A stretch of DNA of 64,000 nt from Thermoanaerobaculia bacterium (GTDB lineage: Bacteria; Acidobacteriota; Thermoanaerobaculia; UBA5066; Gp7-AA6): the NCBI GenBank assembly GCA_038229875.1, contig JBBROA010000002.1, forward strand, positions 1,713 to 65,712, given 5' to 3'. The notes under the pieces are model-generated. The model was not told the origin of the DNA, did not search any database, and saw nothing but the letters and a program-made list of their open reading frames with translations. A program made the position numbers and the translations under genes. Numbering within the stretch: the first letter of the stretch is position 1; each line of letters starts with the position of its first letter. This document shows positions 1 to 20,340 of this stretch, piece by piece.

Positions 1-3983
<3,983 letters not shown>

Positions 3984-3996
3984 GGACGGTCGCCTG

Positions 3997-5061
3997 GTGG
4001 ACGGTGGCCTGGTGAGCCCGGCCCGCAGCTCCGGCGCGCTCGCCTGCTTCGGCAGAGGACTGAGGCTCTCCCTTTCGAAGCCCTATCTCGCCGTTTCCCT
4101 GTGGCTCATCCAGCTCCTCCTCGCGTCGGTGCTGATCCTGCCGGTCTCGAACACTCTGCACGACCTGCTCGACGACTCCCCGGCGGCCAGCCGGATGGTG
4201 GCGAACCCGGATCTGGGATGGTGGGAAACGCTTCTGCGGACGCATCCCGATCTCCTCGGCAGTTTTCCGGACTTGCTCACCGGGCTCCTGACTCCCGAGG
4301 GCGTCACGGCTTCCAAGCTCGGCGGGCTGCATGGCATCGGCGCGACGGCCGTCTCCCTGGGGCTCCTCGCGATCGTGCTCCACGCGTTCGCGCTCGGCGG
4401 CGTCCTGGGGACGCTCCGGGAGCCGCACGGATCTCTCGTGACGTTCGGCCGGGAGGGGATGCGGCGCTTTCCGGCGTTCCTGGCGTTCACGCTGGCGGCG
4501 CTTGCGGCCGCTCTGTTCGCCTACCGCTGGGTGTGGATCGAGAGCGGAGTCGCCCTGCACGACCGTATGCGAGACCTGCAGAGCGAGCGGCAGGCGCTCG
4601 CGATCACGCTGGCGCGGCTCATCCTGCTCGCGCTCGTCCTCGCGACGATCAAGCTGGTGGCCGACTCGGTGCGCACCGTCTGGGTGGCGCGGCCCGATCT
4701 CCCGCCGATCTCGCGGTTCTTTGCCGGCATCGCGGGAGCGCTTTCGCGTCCGCTGCGGCTCTTCGGCGTGCTCCTCTCGGCGCTCGTCGCCATCCTGACG
4801 CTCTACGCGATCTGGATCGTCGCCGATCCGTCGGCGGGCGGAGAGGCGAGATTCGCGCTCGTCCCGCTGATCCTGACGCAGCAGGTCTTCGTCTTTCTTC
4901 GGCTGTTGATCAAGGTCGGGTATTACGCGGGGATCTCGGAGGCGCTGACGCGCACCCCGTCCCCCGAATACTCGTACGTCGCTGCGCCGCCGCCTCCCCC
5001 GTCACCGCGCCCGGCCGGCAACGACGAACCCGCTCTCGAGAACCAGGCCGGCGCCGTCTAG
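3997..5061 (+). CDS. hypothetical polytopic membrane protein with a Pro-rich C-terminal tail
   Basis: Track ORF with a GTG start. It has several hydrophobic helices and a PPPPPSPRP tail. It overlaps the convergent YdjM-like gene by about 60 nt, so the ends are uncertain. Confidence 0.5.
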   Translation: MDGGLVSPARSSGALACFGRGLRLSLSKPYLAVSLWLIQLLLASVLILPVSNTLHDLLDDSPAASRMVANPDLGWWETLLRTHPDLLGSFPDLLTGLLTPEGVTASKLGGLHGIGATAVSLGLLAIVLHAFALGGVLGTLREPHGSLVTFGREGMRRFPAFLAFTLAALAAALFAYRWVWIESGVALHDRMRDLQSERQALAITLARLILLALVLATIKLVADSVRTVWVARPDLPPISRFFAGIAGALSRPLRLFGVLLSALVAILTLYAIWIVADPSAGGEARFALVPLILTQQVFVFLRLLIKVGYYAGISEALTRTPSPEYSYVAAPPPPPSPRPAGNDEPALENQAGAV

Positions 5062-6089: not shown

Positions 6090-6824
6090 TTGGCCCCGCA
6101 GTCCGAGCAGACGCTCCGGGATCGCGTGGCGCTCGTCACGGGCGCCTCGTCCGGCCAGGGCCGCGCGTTCGCGGAGGGGCTCGCGCGCGCCGGCGCCAGA
6201 GTCTTCGCGGTCGCCCGGCGGGAAGAGCTGCTCCGCTCGCTCGTCACCGAGATTTGCGATTCGGGCGGTGAGGCCGCGTATCACGTCGTCGACGTGCGCT
6301 CCATTCCCGCCGTTTTCGACCTCGTGGACGTCGTGCTCGCCCGCTATCGCCGCATCGACATCCTGATCAACGCCGCGGGCATCGGCTACCGCGCTCCGTT
6401 GATCGAGCTCAAGCGGTCGCAGATCGAGGAGATGCTCGCGACCGATCTTGCCGGAGCGATCTACCTGACCTCGGCGGCGCTGCCGTCACTGATCAAGAGC
6501 GCTCCCGCGCACATCGTGAACGTGGCCTCGATCGCGGGGCTCGAGGGGTTCGCCGAGGGCTCGGTCTACTGCGCCGCGAAACACGGGCTCGTGGGCTTCA
6601 CGCGCGCGCTCGCGCAGGAATTGAAACCGCAGGGGGTGCGCGTGACGGCGCTCTGCTCCGGGTCGGTCGACACCGAGTTCTTCGACCGTTTCCGTCCGAC
6701 CACGGAGAAGAGCCAGCGACTGCGGCCGGAAGATGTGTTGGCCGCGCTCCTCGGAATCCTGACGTCGCCGCCGCACGTGCTGCATGGCGAAGTCGTGCTG
6801 CGGCCGAGGGTCGTTCCGGCCTAG
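6090..6824 (+). CDS. SDR-family short-chain dehydrogenase/reductase
   Basis: VALVTGASSGQGRA is the TGxxxGxG motif; NAAG; YCAAKHG is the YxxxK motif. The TTG start at 6090 could instead be GTG at 6126. A TGATAAT -10-like box lies at about 6071. Confidence 0.85.
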   Translation: MAPQSEQTLRDRVALVTGASSGQGRAFAEGLARAGARVFAVARREELLRSLVTEICDSGGEAAYHVVDVRSIPAVFDLVDVVLARYRRIDILINAAGIGYRAPLIELKRSQIEEMLATDLAGAIYLTSAALPSLIKSAPAHIVNVASIAGLEGFAEGSVYCAAKHGLVGFTRALAQELKPQGVRVTALCSGSVDTEFFDRFRPTTEKSQRLRPEDVLAALLGILTSPPHVLHGEVVLRPRVVPA

Positions 6825-6940: not shown

Positions 6941-7633
6941 ATGAGCTCCGTCCTTCTCGTCGACGACACCGGCCTCTTCGACGCTGTCGCCGACGACATC
7001 GCGCGACGGACCCACTGCCGCCCGCTGCGCGCCAGGAACGGGACGGAGGCGCTCGCGACCGCGCGGCGCGAGAAGCCGGACCTGATCTTCCTGGACGCCG
7101 AAATGTCGGGGATGACAGGGATCGACGTGTGTCGGGTACTGAAGGCGGACTCTCACCTCGGGCACCGTCCGGTCGTGGTCGCGGCGGCGACGCCGATCTC
7201 GGCGGACGCGGCCCGCCGCGCCGGTGCGGACGAGTGCATCGACAAGCCCTTCGACACCCCGGTCGTCTTCGACACGATGCGGCGGTACCTTCAGCTCTCG
7301 CCTCGCGACGCGGCGCGGGCGGCGGTCGAGTGGTCGGTGACGTTCTGGCGCGACGGCGCGCAGCACGAGGGCACTCTCCGCGACCTCTCGCGCGGCGGTT
7401 TCTTCATCCGGACTCCCGTGCGCCAACCAGTCGGCGCCAGGCTCGAGATCTCGTTCGAGCTGCCCGGACAGAAAGGCCGGACGGTCGTCGCGGAGGCGAT
7501 CGTGGTGCGCGTCGGGCAGGAATCGGACCGCGGACTCGGGTGCCGGTTCTTCCGGCTGACCGCGGGGTCGCGGACGCACCTCGAGGAGTGCCTGCGGCTG
7601 CTGGAGACGCCGGTGCCGGCGGGAAAGCGCTAG
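6941..7633 (+). CDS. response regulator: receiver domain fused to a C-terminal PilZ (c-di-GMP-binding) domain
   Basis: MSSVLLVDDTG...DLIFLDAEMSGMTG...KP is the receiver part. RDGAQHEGTLRDLSRGGFFIRT carries the RxxxR and DxSxGG PilZ motifs. A TATAAT lies 7 nt before the ATG, so a leaderless start is possible. Confidence 0.8.
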   Translation: MSSVLLVDDTGLFDAVADDIARRTHCRPLRARNGTEALATARREKPDLIFLDAEMSGMTGIDVCRVLKADSHLGHRPVVVAAATPISADAARRAGADECIDKPFDTPVVFDTMRRYLQLSPRDAARAAVEWSVTFWRDGAQHEGTLRDLSRGGFFIRTPVRQPVGARLEISFELPGQKGRTVVAEAIVVRVGQESDRGLGCRFFRLTAGSRTHLEECLRLLETPVPAGKR

Positions 7634-7664
7634 CGGGTCTTCCGCTGACGGAACCCCCCGCCGG

Positions 7665-8117
7665 TCAGACGATCCTCTCCCCCGGCCCCGTTCCCTGCCC
7701 GAGGTCGATCAGCTCGATGCCCGCTTCCCGGGCGACCTGCAGAGACCGCTCGTCCCGGTAGAATTCGCCGTAGTAAACCCGCGCGATCCCGGAGTTCGCG
7801 ATCAGCTTGAAACAGGGCCAGCACGGACTGGCGGTCGTGTACAGCTCCGCGTCGCGGATCGCCACCCCGTTCCGCGCGGCCTGGAGGAGCGCATTCGCCT
7901 CGGCGTGCACGGTCGAGACGCAGTGGCCGTCCTCGACGACGCAGCCGACGTCCTCGCAGTGCGGAAGCCCGCGGATCGAGCCGTTGTAGCCGGTCGAGAG
8001 GATCGTGCGGTCGCGCACGATGACGGCGCCCACGTGCTTCCGTTCGCACGTGGCCCGCGTGGCCACCTGCCGCGCGATGTTCATGAAGTACGTATGCCAG
8101 CCGACGCGTTCGTTCAT
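7665..8117 (-). CDS. dCMP/cytidine-deoxycytidylate deaminase
   Basis: MNERVGWHTYFMNIARQVA...CVSTVHAEANAL...SPCWPCFKLI is the zinc-binding H-A-E / PCxxC signature. The track ORF 7665..9323 is this gene with a spurious upstream read-through. Confidence 0.85.
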   Translation of the reverse strand: MNERVGWHTYFMNIARQVATRATCERKHVGAVIVRDRTILSTGYNGSIRGLPHCEDVGCVVEDGHCVSTVHAEANALLQAARNGVAIRDAELYTTASPCWPCFKLIANSGIARVYYGEFYRDERSLQVAREAGIELIDLGQGTGPGERIV

Positions 8118-8246
8118 GGGCCAATTATGTTCCGACACCGCCGTACGCGAGCCGGGGGTTTCGGCGCCGGGCGCCGTGTCACCATCGCTCTTTGCCTCTC
8201 GGCCTTCGCCCTCCGCCGGCAAGGGCGCGATAGAATTGAGGGTCTT

Positions 8247-9470
8247 ATGGACAAACCCCGGCGCGTCGTCGTCACCGGTCTGGGCGCCGTGACGTCGATC
8301 GGCACGAACGTGACGGATTTCTGGAAAGCGCTCCTCGAGGGGACGTGCGGCATCCGGCCGTTTTCCCTGTTCGATCCTTCCGGTTACCGCACACAGACCG
8401 CGGCGCAGGTCCTGGAGATTCCGGACGGGTTTCTCTCCGCTTCGGAAAGAAAGCGCACGTCCCGCGCCGATCGAATGGGTCTCGCGGCGGCGCGCGAGGC
8501 CATCGCGCAGTCGGGCCTCGATCTCTCGCGGGAGAATCCTGCCCGCATCGGCGTCATCCTGGGAGGCGGGACGTCGGGCCTCCTCGATTCTGAGGCGTAT
8601 TACGAGCAGCACCTTCACGGAAAGAAGGGCCGGCCCTCGCACGTCCTGAACCACCTGCCCGACGCCATTACGGATCGCGTGGCGCAGCGGTTTCGCGTCG
8701 AAGGCATCAAGTCGACGATTACGACGGCCTGCTCTTCGTCGGCAAACGCGATGGGATTCGCGCACGACGCGATCGCGGCGGGGCTGGCGGACGTCATCAT
8801 CACCGGGGGATCCGACGTCCTCGCGCGGCTCACCTACGGCGGGTTCAACTCGCTGCGCTCGGTTGATCCCGAGCCGTGCCGCCCCTTCGACCGGGAGCGC
8901 CGGGGCCTCTCGATCGGCGAGGCGGCCGGCATCCTCGTGTTCGAGGAGTGGGAGCGGGCGAAACGGCGCGGCGCCCCGATCCTGGCGGAGTTCCTGGGCT
9001 ACGGCGTCACCTCGGATGCGCACCACATGACCGCGCCCGACCCGAGCGGGGCCGCCGGAGGGCGCACCGTCCGCTCCGCGCTCGCGGCCGCCGGGATCAA
9101 CGCGGAAGACGTCGATTACGTCAACGCCCATGGAACCGCGACGCCGCAGAACGACTCCGCGGAGACGGCGGCGTTGAAGATGGGACTGGGCGGCCGGGCG
9201 CGCGAAATCCCGATCTCCTCGATCAAGTCGATGATCGGTCATTGCCTCTGCGCGTCGGGGGCGATCGAGGCGGTCGCGACCGTTCTCACCGTCCGGGACG
9301 GTAAGATTCCGCCGACGATTCACTACGACAACCCCGATCCCGCCTGCGATCTCGATTACGTTCCGAACGCCGCGCGGGAAGGCGACATCGAGGTCGCACT
9401 CTCCGATTCGTTTGCGTTCGGCGGCAACAGCTCCGTCGTGGTTTTCGCGCGGGAAGCCGGCGTTTACTGA
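8247..9470 (+). CDS. beta-ketoacyl-ACP synthase, FabF/KAS II type (catalytic Cys-His-His present)
   Basis: MDKPRRVVVTGLGAVTSIG; Cys in TTACSSSANAMG; His in VNAHGTATPQND; His in SMIGHCLCASGAIE; ends FAFGGNSSVVVF. Confidence 0.9.
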   Translation: MDKPRRVVVTGLGAVTSIGTNVTDFWKALLEGTCGIRPFSLFDPSGYRTQTAAQVLEIPDGFLSASERKRTSRADRMGLAAAREAIAQSGLDLSRENPARIGVILGGGTSGLLDSEAYYEQHLHGKKGRPSHVLNHLPDAITDRVAQRFRVEGIKSTITTACSSSANAMGFAHDAIAAGLADVIITGGSDVLARLTYGGFNSLRSVDPEPCRPFDRERRGLSIGEAAGILVFEEWERAKRRGAPILAEFLGYGVTSDAHHMTAPDPSGAAGGRTVRSALAAAGINAEDVDYVNAHGTATPQNDSAETAALKMGLGGRAREIPISSIKSMIGHCLCASGAIEAVATVLTVRDGKIPPTIHYDNPDPACDLDYVPNAAREGDIEVALSDSFAFGGNSSVVVFAREAGVY

Positions 9471-9472
9471 GC

Positions 9473-10609
9473 TTGGCGTCGAGAGGGTGGATCACGGGGA
9501 CGGGCGCCGTCTCGCCCCTGGGGCGCGGCTCGCAGGAGTTCTATCGGCGCCTCCTCGCCGGCGAGACGGCCGTGCGCCCGATGACGGCGGAGGAACGCGC
9601 CGGGCTGCAGGCGACCGAAGTGGCGCGCTGCGACGGTTTTTCGCCGCAGCCGGAGATCCCCCCCATGAAGGCCCGCCGCTTCGACCGCGGAAGCCAGTTC
9701 GCGATCGTGTCCTGTCTCGAGGCGATTCGCGAGGCCGGCTTCAACATCGCCGACGCTCCCGAGGAGATCGGGATCGCAATGGGAACCGGGTCGGCCGGAG
9801 CGGGCGCGTTGACGGAGTTTCTGCGGGTGCTGTTCCTCGAATCGCCGGAGGCCGCGCCGCCGTTCCATTTTCCCAACACGGTCGCGAACGCCCCCGCCTC
9901 GCAGGTCTCCATCGAGCTGAAGCTGTTCGGGCCGAACGTCACGATCACCCAGAAGGATCCTTCCGCATTGAACGCGCTTCTGTACGCGGTTCTGGCGCTC
10001 GAATCCGGGAGGGCGCGCGCGATGCTGGCCGGCGCGGTCGACGAATGGAACGCAATCTACGCCCTCGGATTCGACCGGGTCGGCGCGCTGCGCGGCGAGA
10101 AGCGGCGCTCGGGCATCGTGCAGGGTGAAGGCGGCTTTGCGATGCTCGTCGAGACCGAGGCGGCCGCGCGCCTCCGGGGCGTCCGGCCTCTGGCGAGCCT
10201 CGCGGGAATCGGGTTCGCGGGGGTGCCCACGGACCCGTACCGCTTCGCTCCGGATCCTGCCGCGATCCGCCGGACGATCCAGGGCGCGCTCGACGACGCC
10301 CGCGTCGCGCCCTCAGAGGTCGGGCTGTGGCTCCCCTCCGCAAACGGCGTCGTCGAGATGGACCGCGCGGAGGCCGACGTGATGCGGGAGATTTTCGGAG
10401 CGCCGCCTCGCGCGCTCGCCGTCAAGCACGCGATGGGCGAAGCCGCCGCGTCCGGAGGCGGGCAGCTCGTGGCGGCGACGCGAGCGATCGCGGACCCGGA
10501 CGGGCCGTTCCCGGCGGACGGACGGCCGCGGCGGGCCCTCGTCAACTCGTTCGGCGCCGGTGGAAACTTTCTCGCGGCCGTCCTGGAATCGCCGGCGGCG
10601 GCCGCGTGA
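9473..10609 (+). CDS. ketosynthase-like non-catalytic partner (chain-length-factor analogue; Cys/His/His replaced by Asp/Asn/Glu)
   Basis: TTG start 2 nt after the KS stop. KS fold (ITGTGAVSPLG...FGAGGNFLAAVLE). At the aligned catalytic positions it has TITQKDPSALNAL (C to D), LPSANGVV (H to N), and KHAMGEAAASGGG (H to E). Confidence 0.8.
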   Translation: MASRGWITGTGAVSPLGRGSQEFYRRLLAGETAVRPMTAEERAGLQATEVARCDGFSPQPEIPPMKARRFDRGSQFAIVSCLEAIREAGFNIADAPEEIGIAMGTGSAGAGALTEFLRVLFLESPEAAPPFHFPNTVANAPASQVSIELKLFGPNVTITQKDPSALNALLYAVLALESGRARAMLAGAVDEWNAIYALGFDRVGALRGEKRRSGIVQGEGGFAMLVETEAAARLRGVRPLASLAGIGFAGVPTDPYRFAPDPAAIRRTIQGALDDARVAPSEVGLWLPSANGVVEMDRAEADVMREIFGAPPRALAVKHAMGEAAASGGGQLVAATRAIADPDGPFPADGRPRRALVNSFGAGGNFLAAVLESPAAAA

Positions 10610-11076
10610 GCGCAGTTCGCTCGGGCGCCGCTCCGCTGAAAGGCTTCGAGATCACGATCCCGGTGCGATTTGCGGAGTGCGATTCCTACGCGGTCGTGTG
10701 GCACGGGCACTACGCTCTGTACCTCGAGCAGGTGAGGGAAGCCTTCACACGGCGTTTCGGGTTTACGGCCACGAAAGCGTTGTCGATCGGATACCGCGTG
10801 CCCATCACCCGGATGGACATCCGGTACCGCCGCCCGGCTCTCGCCGACACGGACATCCGCGTCTGCGCCCGTCTTCGACCCCCCGCGGTCGCGCGGCTCG
10901 AGATCGACTACGAGATCCGCGATGCGGGAGGCGAGCTCCTCGCGAGCGCCGTGACTGAGCAGGTCGTCTTGAACGCGTCGGGAGAGCTCCTCCTGGCGCT
11001 TCCGCGCGACCTCCGGACGCTGGTGTCGGAGATGGTCGCATACCAGGAAGATCAGGATAGAAAGGGGATCGCGTGA
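10606..11076 (+). CDS. 4HBT/YbgC-like hotdog-fold acyl thioesterase
   Basis: GTG start overlapping the upstream TGA (GTGA). FEITIPVRFAECDSYAVVWHGHYALYLE matches the 4HBT D-x4-V-x-H-x2-Y motif. Confidence 0.75.
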   Translation: MSAVRSGAAPLKGFEITIPVRFAECDSYAVVWHGHYALYLEQVREAFTRRFGFTATKALSIGYRVPITRMDIRYRRPALADTDIRVCARLRPPAVARLEIDYEIRDAGGELLASAVTEQVVLNASGELLLALPRDLRTLVSEMVAYQEDQDRKGIA

Positions 11077-11642
11077 AGGGGGATCGCGTGAAGGATGCTT
11101 CTCCGGGCCCCGCCGACAACGGGGCCGACGCCGCGGCGAGAAAACGGCGGTCGTGGTTCTTTCTGGCCCGCTTCCTCGGTCTGCTGATCGGCTTCGCGCT
11201 TCTCGTCTCGTGGACCCCGGTAAACGATCACGCCATCGTGCCGTTCACCGCGGGCGTCGCGCATGCATCGGCCGCGGTCTTAAACGTGCTCCAGGAGCGC
11301 GTCAGCGTCGTCGGAACGGAGATTCGGGCGTCCGGCTTCGGTGTCGACATCGAGAACGGCTGCAACGGCGTCGAGACCGCGCTGCTGTTCTGCGCGGCGG
11401 TGCTCGCCTTCCCTGCTTCCTGGAAGGCGCGGGGTATCGGTCTCCTGCTCGGCTTCGTGGCGATCCAGGGCATCAACCTCGTCCGGGTGGTCTCGCTCTT
11501 CTGGATCGGCCGCCACCACCCCGCTCTTTTCTCGAGCGCTCACACGGTCATCTGGCAGTCGGCGGTCGTCCTGGCCGGCGTCCTGCTGTTCCTCCTGTGG
11601 GCCTCCCGGCAGAAGAGCGGGGCCTCTCCCGCAAACGCGTGA
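11073..11642 (+). CDS. minimal exosortase/archaeosortase-family protein (conserved Cys core only, 189 aa)
   Basis: GTG overlapping the thioesterase TGA; an alternative GTG lies at 11088 because of a 16-bp tandem duplication. GTEIRASGFGVDIENGCNGVETALLFCAAVLAF fits the exosortase G-N-x-I-x-L-P-x-G-x-F-x-V-x-E-A-C-S-G pattern. A downstream TM helix carries the N-L-V-R (NxxR) motif. It has 4-5 TM helices. Confidence 0.6.
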   Translation: MKGDRVKDASPGPADNGADAAARKRRSWFFLARFLGLLIGFALLVSWTPVNDHAIVPFTAGVAHASAAVLNVLQERVSVVGTEIRASGFGVDIENGCNGVETALLFCAAVLAFPASWKARGIGLLLGFVAIQGINLVRVVSLFWIGRHHPALFSSAHTVIWQSAVVLAGVLLFLLWASRQKSGASPANA

Positions 11643-12223
11643 CGGTCTCCCGCGCCGCGCGACGCGCGCTCATGCGCGGAGCCGCCGGGTTCGCCGTGGG
11701 TCTGGCGCTCTGGCTCGCCCTTTCCGCGCCCTACGAGCGGGCGGTCGCCTTCGCCGCGGAAGCGCTGCTGCGGCTGGGAGAGCATCCCGCGGTCACGCGG
11801 ATAACCCCTCGCGGCGGCGAGTTCGTGATCGACCGGAGCGATTTTCCTCCAGCCGCCCCGCGCCCCGGTCTCCCCGCCGCGGATCTCCACTTCAACCTGG
11901 TGATCCTTGCCGCGCTGCTCGCCGCGCTTCCGCCAGCCAGGGGCTCGCGCGTTCTGCTTGCGTTCGCGCTGCTGTACGTCGTGCACGTCGTCGCGCTCTG
12001 CTGCCAGGTGGAATCGCTTTACGCGACGCGGCTCGGGGCCTGGAGTGAGGCAAACTACGGGGCTTTTGCGCGCAACGCGTGGGCGGCCGCTTTCCACGTG
12101 TACCAGATCGCCGGACGATTCGCAGCGCCGTTTGCAATCTGGTGGCCGCTCGCCTGGCGGGAGCCCGCGGATCCGGAAGTCAGGAAAGGTCCGGCGAGAG
12201 GGAAGAAAAAGGCGAAGAGATGA
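11639..12223 (+). CDS. hypothetical polytopic membrane protein, last gene of the KS/CLF/TE/exosortase operon
   Basis: GTG overlapping the upstream TGA (GTGA). It has 3-4 hydrophobic helices and a basic tail RKGPARGKKKAKR. I recognise no domain. Confidence 0.45.
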   Translation: MTVSRAARRALMRGAAGFAVGLALWLALSAPYERAVAFAAEALLRLGEHPAVTRITPRGGEFVIDRSDFPPAAPRPGLPAADLHFNLVILAALLAALPPARGSRVLLAFALLYVVHVVALCCQVESLYATRLGAWSEANYGAFARNAWAAAFHVYQIAGRFAAPFAIWWPLAWREPADPEVRKGPARGKKKAKR

Positions 12224-12251
12224 GGAGTCCCGGGCAACCCGGGAAAGCCGG

Positions 12252-13328
12252 CTACGGGCGCTTGTTGCGGTCGCGGCGCAGGTAGCGGTAGTCGGGGACC
12301 TGATACTCCTTCAGCTTCGCGATCAGCGAGCCGCGCGAGATGTTCAGGACTTCCGCGCCGCGGCTCTGATTTCCCTGTACGCGGCGCATCGCGCGGTCGA
12401 TGACCTCGCGCTCGACGGTCTCGACGATCTTCTTCAGGTCGTCGGTCTGCCGCAGGACGGCGTCGATCTCATCCTCGTTCGGAGGCTCGACGACGACAGG
12501 CGAGGGCACCTCGGCGGGCCCTCGCTCGGAGCGGCGGACCGCGATTCCCGCCAGCTGGGCGGCCTCTTCGAGGAAAAGGATGGTCCTTGCGGGAAGCCTT
12601 GGGCTCTCGCGGACCAGGATCGCGAAGGCGCCGTCCGAAGCCGCGTTCTCGACAACCAGAGTGAGCACTCCGGCGACGCTTTCGGAGCGAACCACACGCT
12701 CGCCCCCGCGGACCTCCTCGAGAAGGCTCGGAGGAAGCGCCGGCTGGTCGACGAACGTCGAAGCGAGAAACCGGAACCCGTTTGCCGCCGTCACGTGGCC
12801 GACCGCCCACTCGCGCGGGGCGAATTCCTGATCCAGAAAATCCGTGAGAGCGATCGCGACTTCCTCCGGGCTGTCGTGCTGCCGGCACAGGCGGTAGGCG
12901 GAAAGCCGCAGGGCGCGATATTCGACTTCCGTCGCTGGCGCGGCAGACGCCTCAGGGGAGGACGATGACACGTCGTTGATGGGAATCTCGTGGACCGGCG
13001 CGGGCCGCCCGGGGTTGCTGCCGACCTGGACAACCGTGATGGTCGCCTCTCCGATCGTGATGCGATCGCCCGCCGCGATCGGCCCGCCCGAAAATTCGCG
13101 GCCGTTCACGGTGATGGCGTCGACGCCTTTATAGAGGTCGAGCTGGTAGCGGCCGTCCTTCTCGACGAAACGGATGTGGCGGCCAGCAACCCCACGCGCT
13201 CGAACGACGACTTCGTTGCCGGAAGAAGCGCCGACGGTGATCGCCGTGCCGAGCACGCGGTGCAATTCCGCCCCTCCCGCTCGTTTGCGGACTTCCAAGT
13301 TCAGCATTTTTGTCTTCTTGTCCGTCAA
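12252..13328 (-). CDS. FHA-domain transcriptional regulator with C-terminal Fis-type HTH
   Basis: The N-terminus ITVGASSGNEVVVRARGVAGRHIRFVEKDGRYQL is an FHA domain. The C-terminus RGAEVLNISRGSLIAKLKEYQV is a Fis-family HTH. The middle looks GAF-like. Confidence 0.72.
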   Translation of the reverse strand: MTDKKTKMLNLEVRKRAGGAELHRVLGTAITVGASSGNEVVVRARGVAGRHIRFVEKDGRYQLDLYKGVDAITVNGREFSGGPIAAGDRITIGEATITVVQVGSNPGRPAPVHEIPINDVSSSSPEASAAPATEVEYRALRLSAYRLCRQHDSPEEVAIALTDFLDQEFAPREWAVGHVTAANGFRFLASTFVDQPALPPSLLEEVRGGERVVRSESVAGVLTLVVENAASDGAFAILVRESPRLPARTILFLEEAAQLAGIAVRRSERGPAEVPSPVVVEPPNEDEIDAVLRQTDDLKKIVETVEREVIDRAMRRVQGNQSRGAEVLNISRGSLIAKLKEYQVPDYRYLRRDRNKRP

Positions 13329-13496
13329 TAACGTATATCAAACATGCCGGGATCTGAACAAAAATATGCACGCCACCGTACCAACCTCCAAAAAACCCTC
13401 CGGCGGGTCGGACGCACCGGATCTGGTATCCCCGCCCGCAATGGCCACAATAAGTTGTGGAACACTCCGGGGGCTTTTGCTAGATTCGTGAACACG

Positions 13497-17976: not shown

Positions 17977-20340
17977 TTACCGTCCGCCGGGAGTAACGAA
18001 GCCCGGCCGGTCCTGTTGCCATGCGAGGCTGACGCCAGTCGTCATCGGAACGCCAATGATTCCGATCATGTCTTTGACATCTTTGTAAGGGTCGTAGCGG
18101 TTAGCGGCATCTCCGCCCGGTGAAAGCGCTAGGACCACGTACGATCCGGGAGAGAGCAAGTCACAGGCATGTACCTCGGAATTCATGTCAGGCTGCATTA
18201 ACGATTCGATTGACAGCCCGTTAGCAGCCGCGGCCTGCCGAAGCACGGAAATGGGTATTTCCATCCCGTTCCTGACGAAAAGCAGAATAGCGTCTCGACG
18301 TGGAACCCCGAGCTTCCCGAGCACCTTGAGGCCCGGACCTGAAACAAATGGCGACAAAGTTAAAGTTAACGTGTTTGTCTTCTCATCCGCAGACGGATCG
18401 GCGCTGGCGGGTAAGAGGGCGGTTTGAACGGTGAATCCAGGGGCGAATACGTAAACGGGGAGCATTTCCCCCGCCAGCTCCTCGAGGACAAGCTCACCTT
18501 GCCCGTCCGTAACACCGAGCGAGCGCAGCGGAGCCAGGCGAGGCGCCATGCGACGCGGATGGACCGGCACCATTACTTGCGCATTAGGAATGCCTTCGCC
18601 CCTGAGATCTCGAACGGCGACTCTGAACGGGGCCGCCTTGTCCAAATCGATCTCAAGGTTCCGAGTCTCCGTGCCAAGAGCGTCGACAAGGAGTTGTTTT
18701 CGCGAGTGGCCCTCGGCTCTTCCGGCGATCGTCAAGGTCCCGTCCTCGAGATCTCCGAAGGACGCTTTCCCGAACTCATCGGTGGGTTTCGTTTCCGAGC
18801 GGTGCTCTCCCGCCAGGCTTTCAAAGCTGGCATCCAAGAGCCCCGGAATGGGGCGGCCCGATGAGCGGTCTCGGAGGGTTACTGCGACAGTTCCACCCCT
18901 GAAAACGATATCGAAAAGCGTCTCGGGTTCCTTCGCCTCAACGCTACCCCCTCGGCGCGTTCCGTCCGGAAGCGACGCCGAAACGTAGACATGACATGCG
19001 CACCCTACAGTCAACGCGTAGCTACCATCTGCGCTCGAGATCGTTTCGCCTAACGTCGTACTCTCTTGACCCATGATTCTGGCGAACGGGATGATTCTGA
19101 TCGCGGCGTCAGCTGCGGGTTGGTCCCCGCGAAGTACCCGCCCTCTGACCACTCTCGAAGCAAACACCACTGTGAGACTTGGGTTCTCGGCTGTCGCGAC
19201 GTCCACGTCTTTTTCGCCGTAAGCCCACAAGCCGGCGGCTTTTCCCTCAGCCCTGTAATGCCCCGACTCGGAGATGGGTATCTCGACACTGTTCCCTTGG
19301 GCGAGATCACCTCGCCAGACGATTGTTTCGGAGCCCCTCCTGGTTACTTCCAACGCGTTGGCTGACGTAACGTTCTCTGTGATCTTCTTGAGGACGACAT
19401 TCACGTCGCCAGCAAGGGGCGAATCTGATTTCGCGCTCACCACCAATTTTGGAAGTGTTCTGAGTGCGATGTCAAAAAATCGGTCCCCCTGTGCCCTCGA
19501 AATCTCCCTGGCATTGACCTCCGCCGGACGATAACCTGCCACTCGGACATTCCAGGAATGAGGCACTTCGGGGAGACGATCTACGACAACATTTCCCGAA
19601 GCGTCTGGACGGAGTGTCCGAGATTCTAACCAGAGCGCGACCAGCCGCCCAGAAGCGGTTGATCCGGCAGAAACCCAGTTCACAGTGATTCTTGTCACAT
19701 CGCCGGGAGGTGGTCGAAGACGGATCGTTTCAGCGTGACCCCGTTGAGAGATCGGCGACGCAAGGCTCCTCGCTTCGCCCGGAAGTAGGGCAAGATCGGG
19801 GATGATGGCGGGGGCGGACTCGCCATCATCGAACAAAACGTCCCACCGGTCGGGTGGAAGAACGAACGCGACTACGCTTGGCGATGGCGATGACGTATCG
19901 GCTCGCATCTCCCGGCGCCCGTCCTGAGAACGTGCCACCAAAAGAGGGGGATTCGTCGCCCGAACCGGTCTTGGCAGCCTGATTTGCAGTGTAGCGAGCG
20001 CGTTGAATGTTACGGGCTGTCGCCATTGAGCCCGGGGTAGAGTGACGACATCAAACCCGGGCGCGGTGAGCGTCAGCTCGGTCATTGACTCTTCAACCGG
20101 CAGGACTATCGTATCGGCGTGCGGCGTCAGGATCTGGTCAAATGTGCGAATCCCCTTCACGCCGGCGCCGACTACACGGATCGACTTGGAAGCGGATCGG
20201 CCTACCCATCGGAGCGAGAGTCTGATCTGGCGGATCGATGCCTTTTCCGAGCCCGCCTGACTCGGGTTCGGTGGCGAAACGGGCTGGGAGGAAGTGATAG
20301 CCGCGAAAAAAAAGATGGTGGCAGCGCCGAGGTATCCCAT
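17977..20340 (-). CDS. large secreted protein with multiple carboxypeptidase-regulatory-like (CarbopepD_reg) Ig-like domains
   Basis: GGAGGA Shine-Dalgarno. Signal peptide MGYLGAATIFFFAAITSS. Repeated RGRVLRGDQPAADAAIRIIP...SADGSYAL modules. TAA stop. Local GC is about 55-58% against roughly 69% background. Confidence 0.7.
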   Translation of the reverse strand: MGYLGAATIFFFAAITSSQPVSPPNPSQAGSEKASIRQIRLSLRWVGRSASKSIRVVGAGVKGIRTFDQILTPHADTIVLPVEESMTELTLTAPGFDVVTLPRAQWRQPVTFNALATLQIRLPRPVRATNPPLLVARSQDGRREMRADTSSPSPSVVAFVLPPDRWDVLFDDGESAPAIIPDLALLPGEARSLASPISQRGHAETIRLRPPPGDVTRITVNWVSAGSTASGRLVALWLESRTLRPDASGNVVVDRLPEVPHSWNVRVAGYRPAEVNAREISRAQGDRFFDIALRTLPKLVVSAKSDSPLAGDVNVVLKKITENVTSANALEVTRRGSETIVWRGDLAQGNSVEIPISESGHYRAEGKAAGLWAYGEKDVDVATAENPSLTVVFASRVVRGRVLRGDQPAADAAIRIIPFARIMGQESTTLGETISSADGSYALTVGCACHVYVSASLPDGTRRGGSVEAKEPETLFDIVFRGGTVAVTLRDRSSGRPIPGLLDASFESLAGEHRSETKPTDEFGKASFGDLEDGTLTIAGRAEGHSRKQLLVDALGTETRNLEIDLDKAAPFRVAVRDLRGEGIPNAQVMVPVHPRRMAPRLAPLRSLGVTDGQGELVLEELAGEMLPVYVFAPGFTVQTALLPASADPSADEKTNTLTLTLSPFVSGPGLKVLGKLGVPRRDAILLFVRNGMEIPISVLRQAAAANGLSIESLMQPDMNSEVHACDLLSPGSYVVLALSPGGDAANRYDPYKDVKDMIGIIGVPMTTGVSLAWQQDRPGFVTPGGR

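Follow-up and report, generated by a model that had tools for sequence, protein, structure and literature searches.

An exosortase H cassette at the end of a probable acyl-chain operon in Thermoanaerobaculia: two separable modules joined in one clade

A five-gene operon from a Thermoanaerobaculia bacterium (Acidobacteriota) places a ketosynthase, a ketosynthase-like protein and a thioesterase directly in front of an exosortase and a membrane protein. Does this arrangement encode a single pathway, in which protein sorting depends on a dedicated lipid, or two functions that are expressed together? The window analysed here is a stretch of 64,000 nucleotides of contig JBBROA010000002.1. An earlier note on its sequence had described an operon with one stop+2 nt TTG junction and three GTGA junctions, and we found coordinates and junctions exactly as claimed (Table 1). 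The genes, KS1, KS2, TE, XrtH and Assoc, follow one another on the plus strand between 8247 and 12223, and all five reading frames are backed by codon-position GC. The TGA of KS1 ends at 9470 and the TTG of KS2 follows after 2 nt, at 9473; TE, XrtH (at 11073) and Assoc each start with a GTG that overlaps the stop codon of the gene before it (GTGA). At the TE/XrtH junction, the tandem repeat of GGGATCGCGTGAAGG yields two GTG starts in the same frame, both preceded by a purine-rich stretch of their own, and XrtH would have 184 residues if the second GTG (11088) were used. Five close relatives lack the duplication: they carry one copy of GCGTGAAGG (or GCATGAAGG), and their start codon overlaps the stop of TE.

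Table 1. Features of the locus and its two boundaries
Feature	Coordinates	Strand	Evidence
dCMP deaminase gene, divergent; upstream boundary, outside the operon	7665..8117	-	HAEANAL and PCWPC motifs in the translation
KS1, FabF-like beta-ketoacyl-ACP synthase, 407 aa, ATG start	8247..9470	+	PF00109 139.8 bits; PF02801 131.2 bits
KS2, ketosynthase-like partner, 378 aa, TTG start, triad lost	9473..10609	+	PF00109 82.8 bits; PF02801 30.9 bits
TE, hotdog-fold (4HBT/YbgC-like) thioesterase, 156 aa	10606..11076	+	PF13279 (4HBT_2) 48.5 bits (cutoff 25.5); PF03061 31.3 bits
Perfect 15-bp tandem duplication at the TE/XrtH junction	11065..11094	+	read from the sequence
XrtH, minimal exosortase H, 189 aa	11073..11642	+	TIGR04177 116.2 bits (cutoff 86); TIGR04178 54.7 bits (cutoff 23)
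Assoc, divergent exosortase-H-associated membrane protein, 194 aa, 3-4 hydrophobic helices	11639..12223	+	NF041730 28.5 bits (below cutoff 35)
FHA + HTH_8 (Fis-type) regulator, convergent; downstream boundary, outside the operon	12252..13328	-	PF02954 43.3 bits; FHA/Yop-YscD_cpl matches

The dCMP deaminase, on whose orthologues PF00383 is recorded, is part of a conserved synteny block and adjoins the ketosynthase-thioesterase trio both in loci of the window's type and in a sister clade. On the other side, the FHA regulator lacks a sigma-54 AAA+ domain, and it comes directly after TE in loci devoid of XrtH. As the earlier note had said, the operon contains no ACP, KR or DH; furthermore, a search for ACP motifs over the whole window and 168 related loci found none. 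Its statement that no PEP-CTERM-type cargo is visible also held, as a search of the window for C-terminal sorting signals came back empty.

An alignment shows the Cys-His-His triad of KS1 to be intact (TACSSS, DAHHM and NAHGT), which agrees with its Pfam matches and with its description as a FabF-type ketosynthase. In KS2, all three catalytic residues are gone: Asp replaces Cys in TQKDPS, Tyr-Arg stands for His-His, and Ser-Ala-Asn for Ala-His-Gly. The loss is common to all aligned KS2 orthologues, so that the description of gene 2 as an inactive ketosynthase is upheld, and TQKDPS is also kept in a sister-clade protein with 47% identity (P0244). The TTG start of KS2 matches NCBI-annotated orthologues, one of which (P0121) is 100% identical over 378 residues. 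In its sequence KS2 resembles a chain-length factor (CLF), although classical CLFs have Gln at the position of the active-site Cys and KS2 has Asp. PDB entry 9s5h, which we take to be the structure of an anammox FabF/dead-FabF pair, contains the best match of KS2 (9s5h_C, 109 bits, barely above the about 102 bits of ordinary FabF proteins) and the third-best of KS1 (9s5h_B). The anammox pair (amxFabF2/amxFabFmut, from the ladderane cluster) is a KS/CLF-like heterodimer by experiment (bioRxiv 10.64898/2026.05.19.726425). There too, an active FabF-like gene adjoins a FabF-like gene without the triad; however, the dead subunit has Val or Thr instead of Cys, the gene order is reversed, and the cluster encodes its own ACP along with radical SAM enzymes. 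The third gene is a 4HBT thioesterase, as proposed, and matches the PDB thioesterases 1z54 and 6fdg; its score against TIGR00051 (40.1) is below the cutoff of 68.7.

Gene 4 had been described as an exosortase core, and its match to TIGR04178 confirms this. Judging by its TIGR04177 score, it belongs to an already named family, exosortase H, which the earlier note had missed, and its homologues are named "exosortase H (IPTLxxWG-CTERM-specific)" in source annotations. XrtH aligns to positions 105-251 only of the 254-position Pfam Exosortase_EpsH model. Cys97, Arg138 and His157 are invariant in a 25-sequence alignment, and Cys-Arg-His has been inferred to be the exosortase catalytic triad in Haft's preprint. 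The AlphaFold2 model of XrtH has a pLDDT of 88.8, and no solved-structure relative of the model was found. Assoc, called an unknown membrane protein before, is instead a homologue of the exosortase-H partner: the NF041730 model is matched by 12 of 16 Assoc orthologues, among which conserved polar residues are present. It comes after XrtH, whether linked or solo, in all loci with enough downstream sequence except L084, where Assoc fell under the identity filter of one script. A single-sequence structure model of Assoc was unusable (pLDDT 55).

These two genes have much in common with the exosortase H system (TIGR04177, NF041730, TIGR04174), namely a minimal exosortase of about 180 aa with the invariant residues and a partner homologue in the same position. 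In addition, two related loci with a solo XrtH (L004 and L066) have IPTL-like cargo tails beside it, consisting of a V/IPTL motif, a hydrophobic helix and RR or RRR. The differences are that Assoc and the candidate cargo tails (11.4 against 20.5) are under the curated cutoffs and that the window is without cargo. XrtA/EpsH PEP-CTERM systems have accessory genes for an acyl-CoA ligase, an ACP and a decarboxylase, and they too place an exosortase near acyl metabolism. The exosortase here, however, is of the XrtH subfamily, has no EpsI domain and has relatives with IPTL rather than PEP cargo signals; the acyl genes are others, and there is no EPS locus. Our literature search found no description of XrtH behind a ketosynthase/thioesterase operon.

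The association of the two parts exceeds chance. XrtH lies directly behind TE in 66 of the 75 assessable GTDB species loci of Thermoanaerobaculia and in 41 of 49 metagenome contigs that were anchored on KS2 and are of the window's type, so that the five-gene arrangement is conserved in relatives. In a junction survey across related loci, the KS2-TE spacing was -4 in 60 loci, and the TE-XrtH spacing was -4 in 31 and +8 in 11. The earlier note's "hard-wired" is nevertheless an overstatement. XrtH is absent from the remaining eight of the 49 contigs, and trio-only loci of the window's type include L086, L099, L112, L119, L120, L142 and L151. On one contig of 3,226,042 bp, the trio (L085, at 2.90 Mb) and XrtH-Assoc (L034, at 0.90 Mb) are 2 Mb apart, and the trio keeps its usual chromosomal place. 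In the sister clade (L087, L088, L140, L162 and L164), whose KS2 is about 47% identical, the trio stands beside the dCMP deaminase with no XrtH within about 9.5 kb. Conversely, XrtH-Assoc without KS or TE nearby was found in at least nine species loci, the deepest branches of the XrtH tree included, and these solo pairs occur in varied, unrelated contexts, twice beside the IPTL-like cargo. In the tree, the outgroups are solo and one large clade is linked, with two solo groups nested within it. The trio is older than its linkage to XrtH. In L144, which has a sister-type trio, XrtH-Assoc lies within 1.5 kb of TE with an opposite-strand histidine kinase between them; therefore, the association of the modules may predate their fusion into an operon.

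Because the trio and XrtH-Assoc also occur apart, we read the locus as composite: two separable modules have come together as a translationally coupled operon in one large Thermoanaerobaculia clade. The junction most likely serves the co-expression of two envelope functions and not an obligatory biochemical dependence, a reading we favour with moderate confidence. On this reading KS1-KS2-TE, which lies between the dCMP deaminase on one side and the FHA regulator/SMC genes on the other, is an old, chromosomally stable acyl-chain module. As in KS/chain-length-factor pairs, active KS1 and dead KS2 may form a heterodimer that condenses malonyl units onto an acyl chain held by an ACP encoded elsewhere, presumably the housekeeping one, and the hotdog thioesterase would then set the product free. 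XrtH-Assoc is the known exosortase-H cassette, in which XrtH, an intramembrane enzyme, probably cuts IPTL-type C-terminal sorting signals off secreted proteins and passes the proteins on, with Assoc as its partner membrane protein. This cassette would have come to stand directly behind TE, and therefore both modules would be made from one message. What link there is between the modules, if any, we infer from their arrangement. Against this composite reading, the stop-start overlap is maintained down to about 56-60% XrtH identity, and overlaps kept that far usually mark a functional partnership.

Such a partnership would couple sorting to lipid directly, which is the idea of the earlier note: KS1/KS2/TE would supply an acyl or beta-keto-acyl product dedicated to this purpose, or a lipid derived from it, and XrtH, perhaps with Assoc, would use it as the acceptor on removal of the IPTL-type helix, leaving the cargo lipid-anchored. 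The gene neighbourhood is what suggests this coupling, a possible but rather unlikely alternative. The translational coupling in the same 66 species loci argues for it, as do the closeness of the modules in L144 and the retention of both in a genome where they are unlinked, which a real partnership predicts. There is also a precedent in archaea, where a sortase-like enzyme of the same superfamily, ArtA, lies beside lipid-biosynthesis genes in one clade only: artA adjoins pssA/pssD in Methanosarcina alone and stands unclustered in over 70 genomes of haloarchaea, and yet the juxtaposition rightly foretold a functional link, as lipid anchoring by ArtA in Haloferax needs PssA and PssD (PMC7157517; for a summary of lipid attachment linked to archaeosortases, see bioRxiv 10.1101/2023.06.07.544157). 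However, the lipid genes there build a phospholipid head group that offers an amine as nucleophile (archaetidylethanolamine), whereas here a chain-elongating ketosynthase pair and a thioesterase provide no obvious nucleophile. A free acid released by TE would be a poor nucleophile for Cys-protease transpeptidation, and the locus offers no acyltransferase, ligase or ACP to transfer a fatty acid to protein or head group. The solo XrtH-Assoc loci and the sister-clade trios without nearby XrtH also count against direct coupling. So does the breadth of TIGR04177, a general NCBI model that was founded on members from other phyla, in which, to our knowledge, no such trio has been described.

Ordinary housekeeping fatty-acid synthesis, with KS1 as the organism's FabF and its neighbours incidental, is very improbable. 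In its favour, KS1 scores above the cutoff of the subfamily model NF005589, "beta-ketoacyl-ACP synthase II" (413 against 387), FabF proteins lead its PDB matches, and the genes around the locus (ligA, dCMP deaminase, SMC) are core genes. On the other hand, it is under the cutoff of the fabF equivalog TIGR03150 (415.9 against 493.75), is always accompanied by a triad-less ketosynthase and a thioesterase, and has none of acpP, fabD, fabG, fabH or fabZ beside it. The nearest SDR lies beyond two other genes, is absent from several loci and stays below every NCBIfam cutoff (129-136 bits with FabG models that require 222-332). KS2 is without catalytic residues, and therefore an ordinary fab cluster does not fit. 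Also very improbable is a small cluster for a secondary metabolite, of the aryl-polyene or highly reducing type II PKS kind, that has nothing to do with protein sorting. Such clusters do have at their core an active ketosynthase, a CLF-like partner without the triad and a 4HBT-type thioesterase (type II PKS KS/CLF; ApeO/ApeC with ApeK); the ishigamide and actinorhodin KS/CLF pairs are among the PDB matches, and the NCBIfam model of cispentacin AmcF shows weak similarity (241 and 77 bits, in both cases under the cutoff of 325). However, neither the window nor any of the 168 related loci has an ACP dedicated to the trio, a ketoreductase, a dehydratase pair, an acyltransferase, a LolA-like protein or an MMPL exporter, and the trio behaves as a stable core-genome feature over deep divergence, not as a patchy accessory cluster.

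In one uncultured lineage of Acidobacteria, then, XrtH-Assoc, a pair known from the sorting of surface proteins, ends an older fatty-acyl operon, a promising though unproven lead towards a possible use of lipid by exosortases.

Five genes of the window (8247-12223) run as a single translationally coupled operon, as the earlier note had proposed, with a 2-nt gap at the first junction and GTGA overlaps at the other three. On its upstream side the operon adjoins a dCMP deaminase gene in divergent orientation, and on its downstream side a convergent gene for an FHA and HTH_8 regulator; its wider flanks hold ligA, YdjM, a generic SDR, a response-regulator-PilZ protein and SMC. A promoter and terminator scan of window positions 7600-13400 gave no signal above shuffled expectation.

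Genes of the ketosynthase-exosortase operon in the window
Gene	Position	Strand	Description
KS1	8247-9470	+	FabF-like ketosynthase
KS2	9473-10609	+	TTG start, 2 nt past KS1 stop
TE	10606-11076	+	thioesterase; GTGA overlap with KS2
XrtH	11073-11642	+	GTGA overlap with TE
Assoc	11639-12223	+	membrane protein; GTGA overlap with XrtH

Exactly at the TE/XrtH junction, the window carries a perfect 15-bp tandem duplication, GGGATCGCGTGAAGG x2 (11065-11094), from which two in-frame GTG starts arise, at 11073 and 11088. The unit is duplicated in the window alone and is present as a single copy in five close relatives, and the conserved XrtH start among close relatives is a GTG or ATG overlapping the TE stop. 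The GC content of the window is high, about 0.59-0.73 across the first 30 kb. Between 18000 and 21000 it goes down to about 0.59, compared with 0.65-0.73 around it, and the dip spans a minus-strand gene (17977-20340) whose 787-aa product carries a CarboxypepD_reg domain. The regulator downstream of the operon (12252-13328, minus strand) has FHA and HTH_8 domains and lacks a sigma-54 AAA+ domain; the syntenic regulator of a sister clade (loci L087 and L144) has about 640-660 aa and the full FHA, Sigma54_activat, HTH_8 architecture. Two ORFs of ~355 aa (2460-3542, minus strand; 3997-5061, plus strand) had no Pfam or NCBIfam match, and a syntenic ~340-aa gene without Pfam hits in loci L001 and L085 is probably the counterpart of the latter.

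KS1 contains both ketoacyl-synthase domains and scores above the cutoff of the broader subfamily model NF005589 (413 vs 387 bits). It shares the Cys-His-His triad of FabF, which the alignment shows to be complete (TACSSS, DAHHM, NAHGT), but falls below the fabF equivalog cutoff (TIGR03150, 415.9 vs 493.75). KS2 matches the ketosynthase models less strongly and has kept none of the three triad residues: Cys is replaced by Asp (TQKDPS), His-His by Tyr-Arg, and Ala-His-Gly by Ser-Ala-Asn. The loss is common to all aligned orthologues and to the sister-clade protein P0244 (47% identical), which upholds the reading of the second ketosynthase as inactive. The active ketosynthase and its triad-less homologue are kept side by side in every related locus with enough sequence, and two ketosynthase chains of one PDB entry, 9s5h, were the best match to KS2 and the third-best to KS1. 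KS2 resembles a chain-length factor. Many distant KS2 relatives (P0250, P0257, P0258 and others) are ~800 aa long with two ketosynthase matches each. P0250, the one that was read, looks like a natural KS-KSbeta fusion, because its N-terminal half keeps the active-site Cys and its C-terminal half resembles KS2.

The third gene encodes a 4HBT_2 hotdog protein (PF13279, 48.5 bits vs cutoff 25.5), and the YbgC/FadM subfamily models matched it below their cutoffs (TIGR00051, 40.1 vs 68.7; TIGR02799, 42 vs 141). The earlier note had seen no ACP in the operon; a search of all ORFs of less than 400 codons, covering the window and 168 related loci, found no ACP motif, and a dedicated ACP for a KS/chain-length-factor cluster was found neither in the window nor near the trio KS1-KS2-TE in related loci. 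The SDR gene (6090-6824) was considered as the missing ketoreductase of the operon and rejected: it scores below every NCBIfam cutoff, is absent in several loci, and has two genes between itself and the operon, one of them on the opposite strand. The trio resembles type II PKS in its ketosynthase and CLF-like partner, but ACP, tailoring and export genes are missing; likewise, the ACP(s), ketoreductase, dehydratase pair, acyltransferase and LolA-like/MMPL export of aryl-polyene clusters are absent beside the window trio. By these criteria the trio fits neither group. The closest analogy to KS1/KS2 is the recently characterised FabF/dead-FabF heterodimer of anammox bacteria (bioRxiv 10.64898/2026.05.19.726425).

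The fourth gene had been read as an exosortase-family protein, and model searches confirmed this. It matched the exosortase/archaeosortase signature TIGR04178 (54.7 bits vs cutoff 23), Pfam PF09721 (27.8 vs 25.7) and, best of the exosortase subfamily models, the exosortase H model TIGR04177 (116.2 vs 86); the runner-up, XrtM, scored 70.2 bits, below its cutoff of 125. Homologues are named 'exosortase H (IPTLxxWG-CTERM-specific)' in public sources. C97 (in NGCNG), R138 and H157 are invariant in a 25-sequence alignment, and Cys, Arg and His form the inferred catalytic triad of exosortases as defined previously (bioRxiv 10.1101/2023.06.07.544157). The protein has only 189 aa and covers the C-terminal half only of the EpsH model; no XrtA model was among its hits and no EPS genes lie near it, which sets it apart from the XrtA/EpsH PEP-CTERM system with its EpsI domain, PEP-CTERM cargo and EPS locus. 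The earlier note had likewise seen neither PEP-CTERM-type cargo nor an EpsI partner in the window. The predicted XrtH structure (pLDDT 88.8) had no significant PDB fold match and thus added nothing beyond the sequence evidence. A tblastn search of plasmids with XrtH was uninformative, its only hits being Methylomonas XrtM.

Gene 5, previously called unknown, turned out to match the model NF041730, 'exosortase H-associated membrane protein', just below the cutoff (28.5 vs 35 bits), and 12 of 16 Assoc orthologues match it at E<=0.01. Assoc has 3-4 helices with conserved polar residues W25, Y32, E48, R66, D68, Y128 and Y140; its single-sequence structure model (pLDDT 55) was left unused. With a single exception, every locus with sufficient sequence has Assoc directly behind XrtH. 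Because of the TIGR04177 and NF041730 matches, including those of the orthologues, genes 4 and 5 are assigned by sequence to the known two-gene XrtH cassette. A literature search found neither work on the function of XrtH nor a report of an exosortase linked to a ketosynthase, and the present arrangement was not described in it.

Conservation of the arrangement was assessed in a species scan with one genome per GTDB species, which gave 80 XrtH loci, 75 of them with enough upstream sequence. TE lies directly upstream of XrtH, with KS2 and KS1 before it, in 66 of these 75 loci. A metagenome scan anchored on KS2-like proteins placed XrtH directly downstream of TE on 41 of the 49 contigs of the window type, as distinct from a sister clade with KS2 ~47% identical. 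Junction spacing is -4 for KS2>TE in 60 loci, -4 (31 loci) or +8 (11 loci) for TE>XrtH, and -4, -23, -11 or -1 for XrtH>Assoc in most loci. The arrangement of trio and XrtH is real, and chance falls far short of explaining it. The whole surrounding block (YdjM, SDR, RR-PilZ, dCMP deaminase, FHA regulator, SMC) is conserved too, however, so plain vertical synteny accounts for some of the signal. All close relatives of the window come from metagenome-assembled genomes, which bear the label Thermoanaerobaculia or Acidobacteriota.

The earlier note described the trio as hard-wired to the exosortase. The conserved coupled operon bears out one part of that claim, but the two modules are demonstrably separable. 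One genome decides the point, as it holds both of them apart on contig_52079 (3,226,042 bp): the trio stands in its usual block at 2.90 Mb, followed directly by the FHA regulator (L085), and XrtH-Assoc is found at 0.90 Mb in an unrelated context (L034). The trio occurs without XrtH in seven further window-type loci, and in the sister clade (L087, L088, L140, L162, L164) it lies beside the dCMP deaminase gene with no XrtH within about 9.5 kb; a more distant KS pair with Cys replaced by Gln (L089, L090) lacks TE as well. Conversely, XrtH-Assoc without a nearby trio was found in at least nine species loci with varied neighbours. The FHA/HTH8 regulator was considered as the true partner of XrtH and rejected, because it stays with the trio where the modules are unlinked.

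The neighbour-joining tree of XrtH has solo loci on its deepest branches and one large clade linked to the trio, with two solo groups nested inside that clade; in the KS2 tree, trio-only loci fall in at least two places. The direction is clear: the trio is older, and XrtH-Assoc settled behind it as a guest and has since departed at least once, with the number of gain and loss events approximate because the trees are short-alignment neighbour-joining trees. One sister-type locus, L144, carries XrtH-Assoc 1.4 kb downstream of TE, with an opposite-strand histidine kinase gene between them and the sigma-54/FHA regulator after XrtH-Assoc. Its XrtH is about 50-58% identical to linked-clade XrtH, and it is the only one of seven assessable sister-clade loci with XrtH near the trio. 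Because both modules are close together there, their association may predate the operon fusion. Within L144 (11100-17320), ~3.2 kb with a minus-strand radical SAM/SPASM gene separate KS2 from TE.

No cargo with an IPTL-type C-terminal sorting signal was found in the 64-kb window, by strict or relaxed searches. The regular expression IPTLxxWG, which proved too strict, had no match in the window and 86 loci. A relaxed tripartite search (motif, hydrophobic helix, basic tail) gave two hits, both beside solo XrtH pairs. In L004 (6774-7685), a 303-aa secreted protein directly upstream of XrtH ends ...NVPTLGGNGIALFIALLAGAGVLLIALRRR, and in L066 (about 1281-3191), a secreted beta-propeller-repeat protein 7 kb upstream of XrtH ends ...AIPTLSPSFLAVLALSLVAAGLFLLRRPS. 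Both tails consist of a VPTL/IPTL motif, a hydrophobic helix and then RR(R). Whole-protein NCBIfam scans missed the short sorting-domain model, and scanning the 40-residue tails alone gave sub-threshold matches only: against TIGR04174, the IPTL-CTERM model, the L066 tail gives an end-to-end alignment (11.4 vs cutoff 20.5), and it matches the 'midcut-by-XrtH' model NF033207 weakly (16.5 vs 45). This supports an ordinary protein-sorting role for this XrtH branch. In one outgroup clade (L076, L077, L080; about 8270-9645), the gene directly before the solo XrtH-Assoc pair encodes a conserved ~440-aa protein that has a signal peptide but neither a Pfam match nor a C-terminal sorting tail.

KS/CLF pairs suggest by analogy that KS1 and KS2 would assemble into a heterodimer, with condensation carried out by KS1 alone and the acyl tunnel shaped by KS2; going by the anammox and PKS precedents, this substrate tunnel would be shared. 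Because the pair has no ACP, KR or DH of its own, it would have to borrow the fatty-acid machinery of the cell, and the hotdog thioesterase would then release the product. XrtH would cleave IPTL-type tails inside the membrane through its Cys-Arg-His site. XrtA loci carry accessory acyl genes. The present arrangement is best described as an exosortase cassette that sits within an operon of lipid type, similar in spirit to those loci and to artA-pssA-pssD.

We lean slightly towards the view that the operon co-expresses two envelope functions without obligatory dependence. That the trio instead supplies a lipid-like acceptor for XrtH, as gene neighbourhood might suggest, seems unlikely, although the archaeal precedent and L144, where the modules also lie near each other in the sister clade, speak for it. 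The artA gene lies beside pssA/pssD in Methanosarcina only and is unclustered in >70 haloarchaeal genomes, yet both PssA and PssD are required for ArtA-dependent lipid anchoring (PMC7157517); clade-limited linkage therefore does not refute coupling. However, on the deepest branches of the XrtH tree no trio lies close by, an acyltransferase or ligase for transfer is absent, and the acid released by the thioesterase is no obvious nucleophile. The fuller scheme, in which the trio makes a lineage-specific acyl compound that XrtH and Assoc attach, itself or as a derived lipid, to the new C-terminus of IPTL-type surface proteins, is quite doubtful; if true, this would be the first bacterial exosortase with its acceptor pathway encoded in its own operon.

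After cleavage, exosortase cargo might be released, attached to polysaccharide or attached to lipid. With a member of a known exosortase subfamily and a module for building acyl chains in one deep, translationally coupled operon, there is a concrete hypothesis on this fate, and for archaeosortase A the lipid-anchoring partners were correctly foreseen from clade-limited synteny of just this kind. Three points temper the value of the operon: its modules are separable, the organisms are represented here by metagenome-assembled genomes only, and the evidence is gene neighbourhood. It is a solid, conserved and testable lead. Even without coupling, the KS/dead-KS/TE trio is a lipid module, conserved but uncharacterised, in a soil lineage that is widespread.
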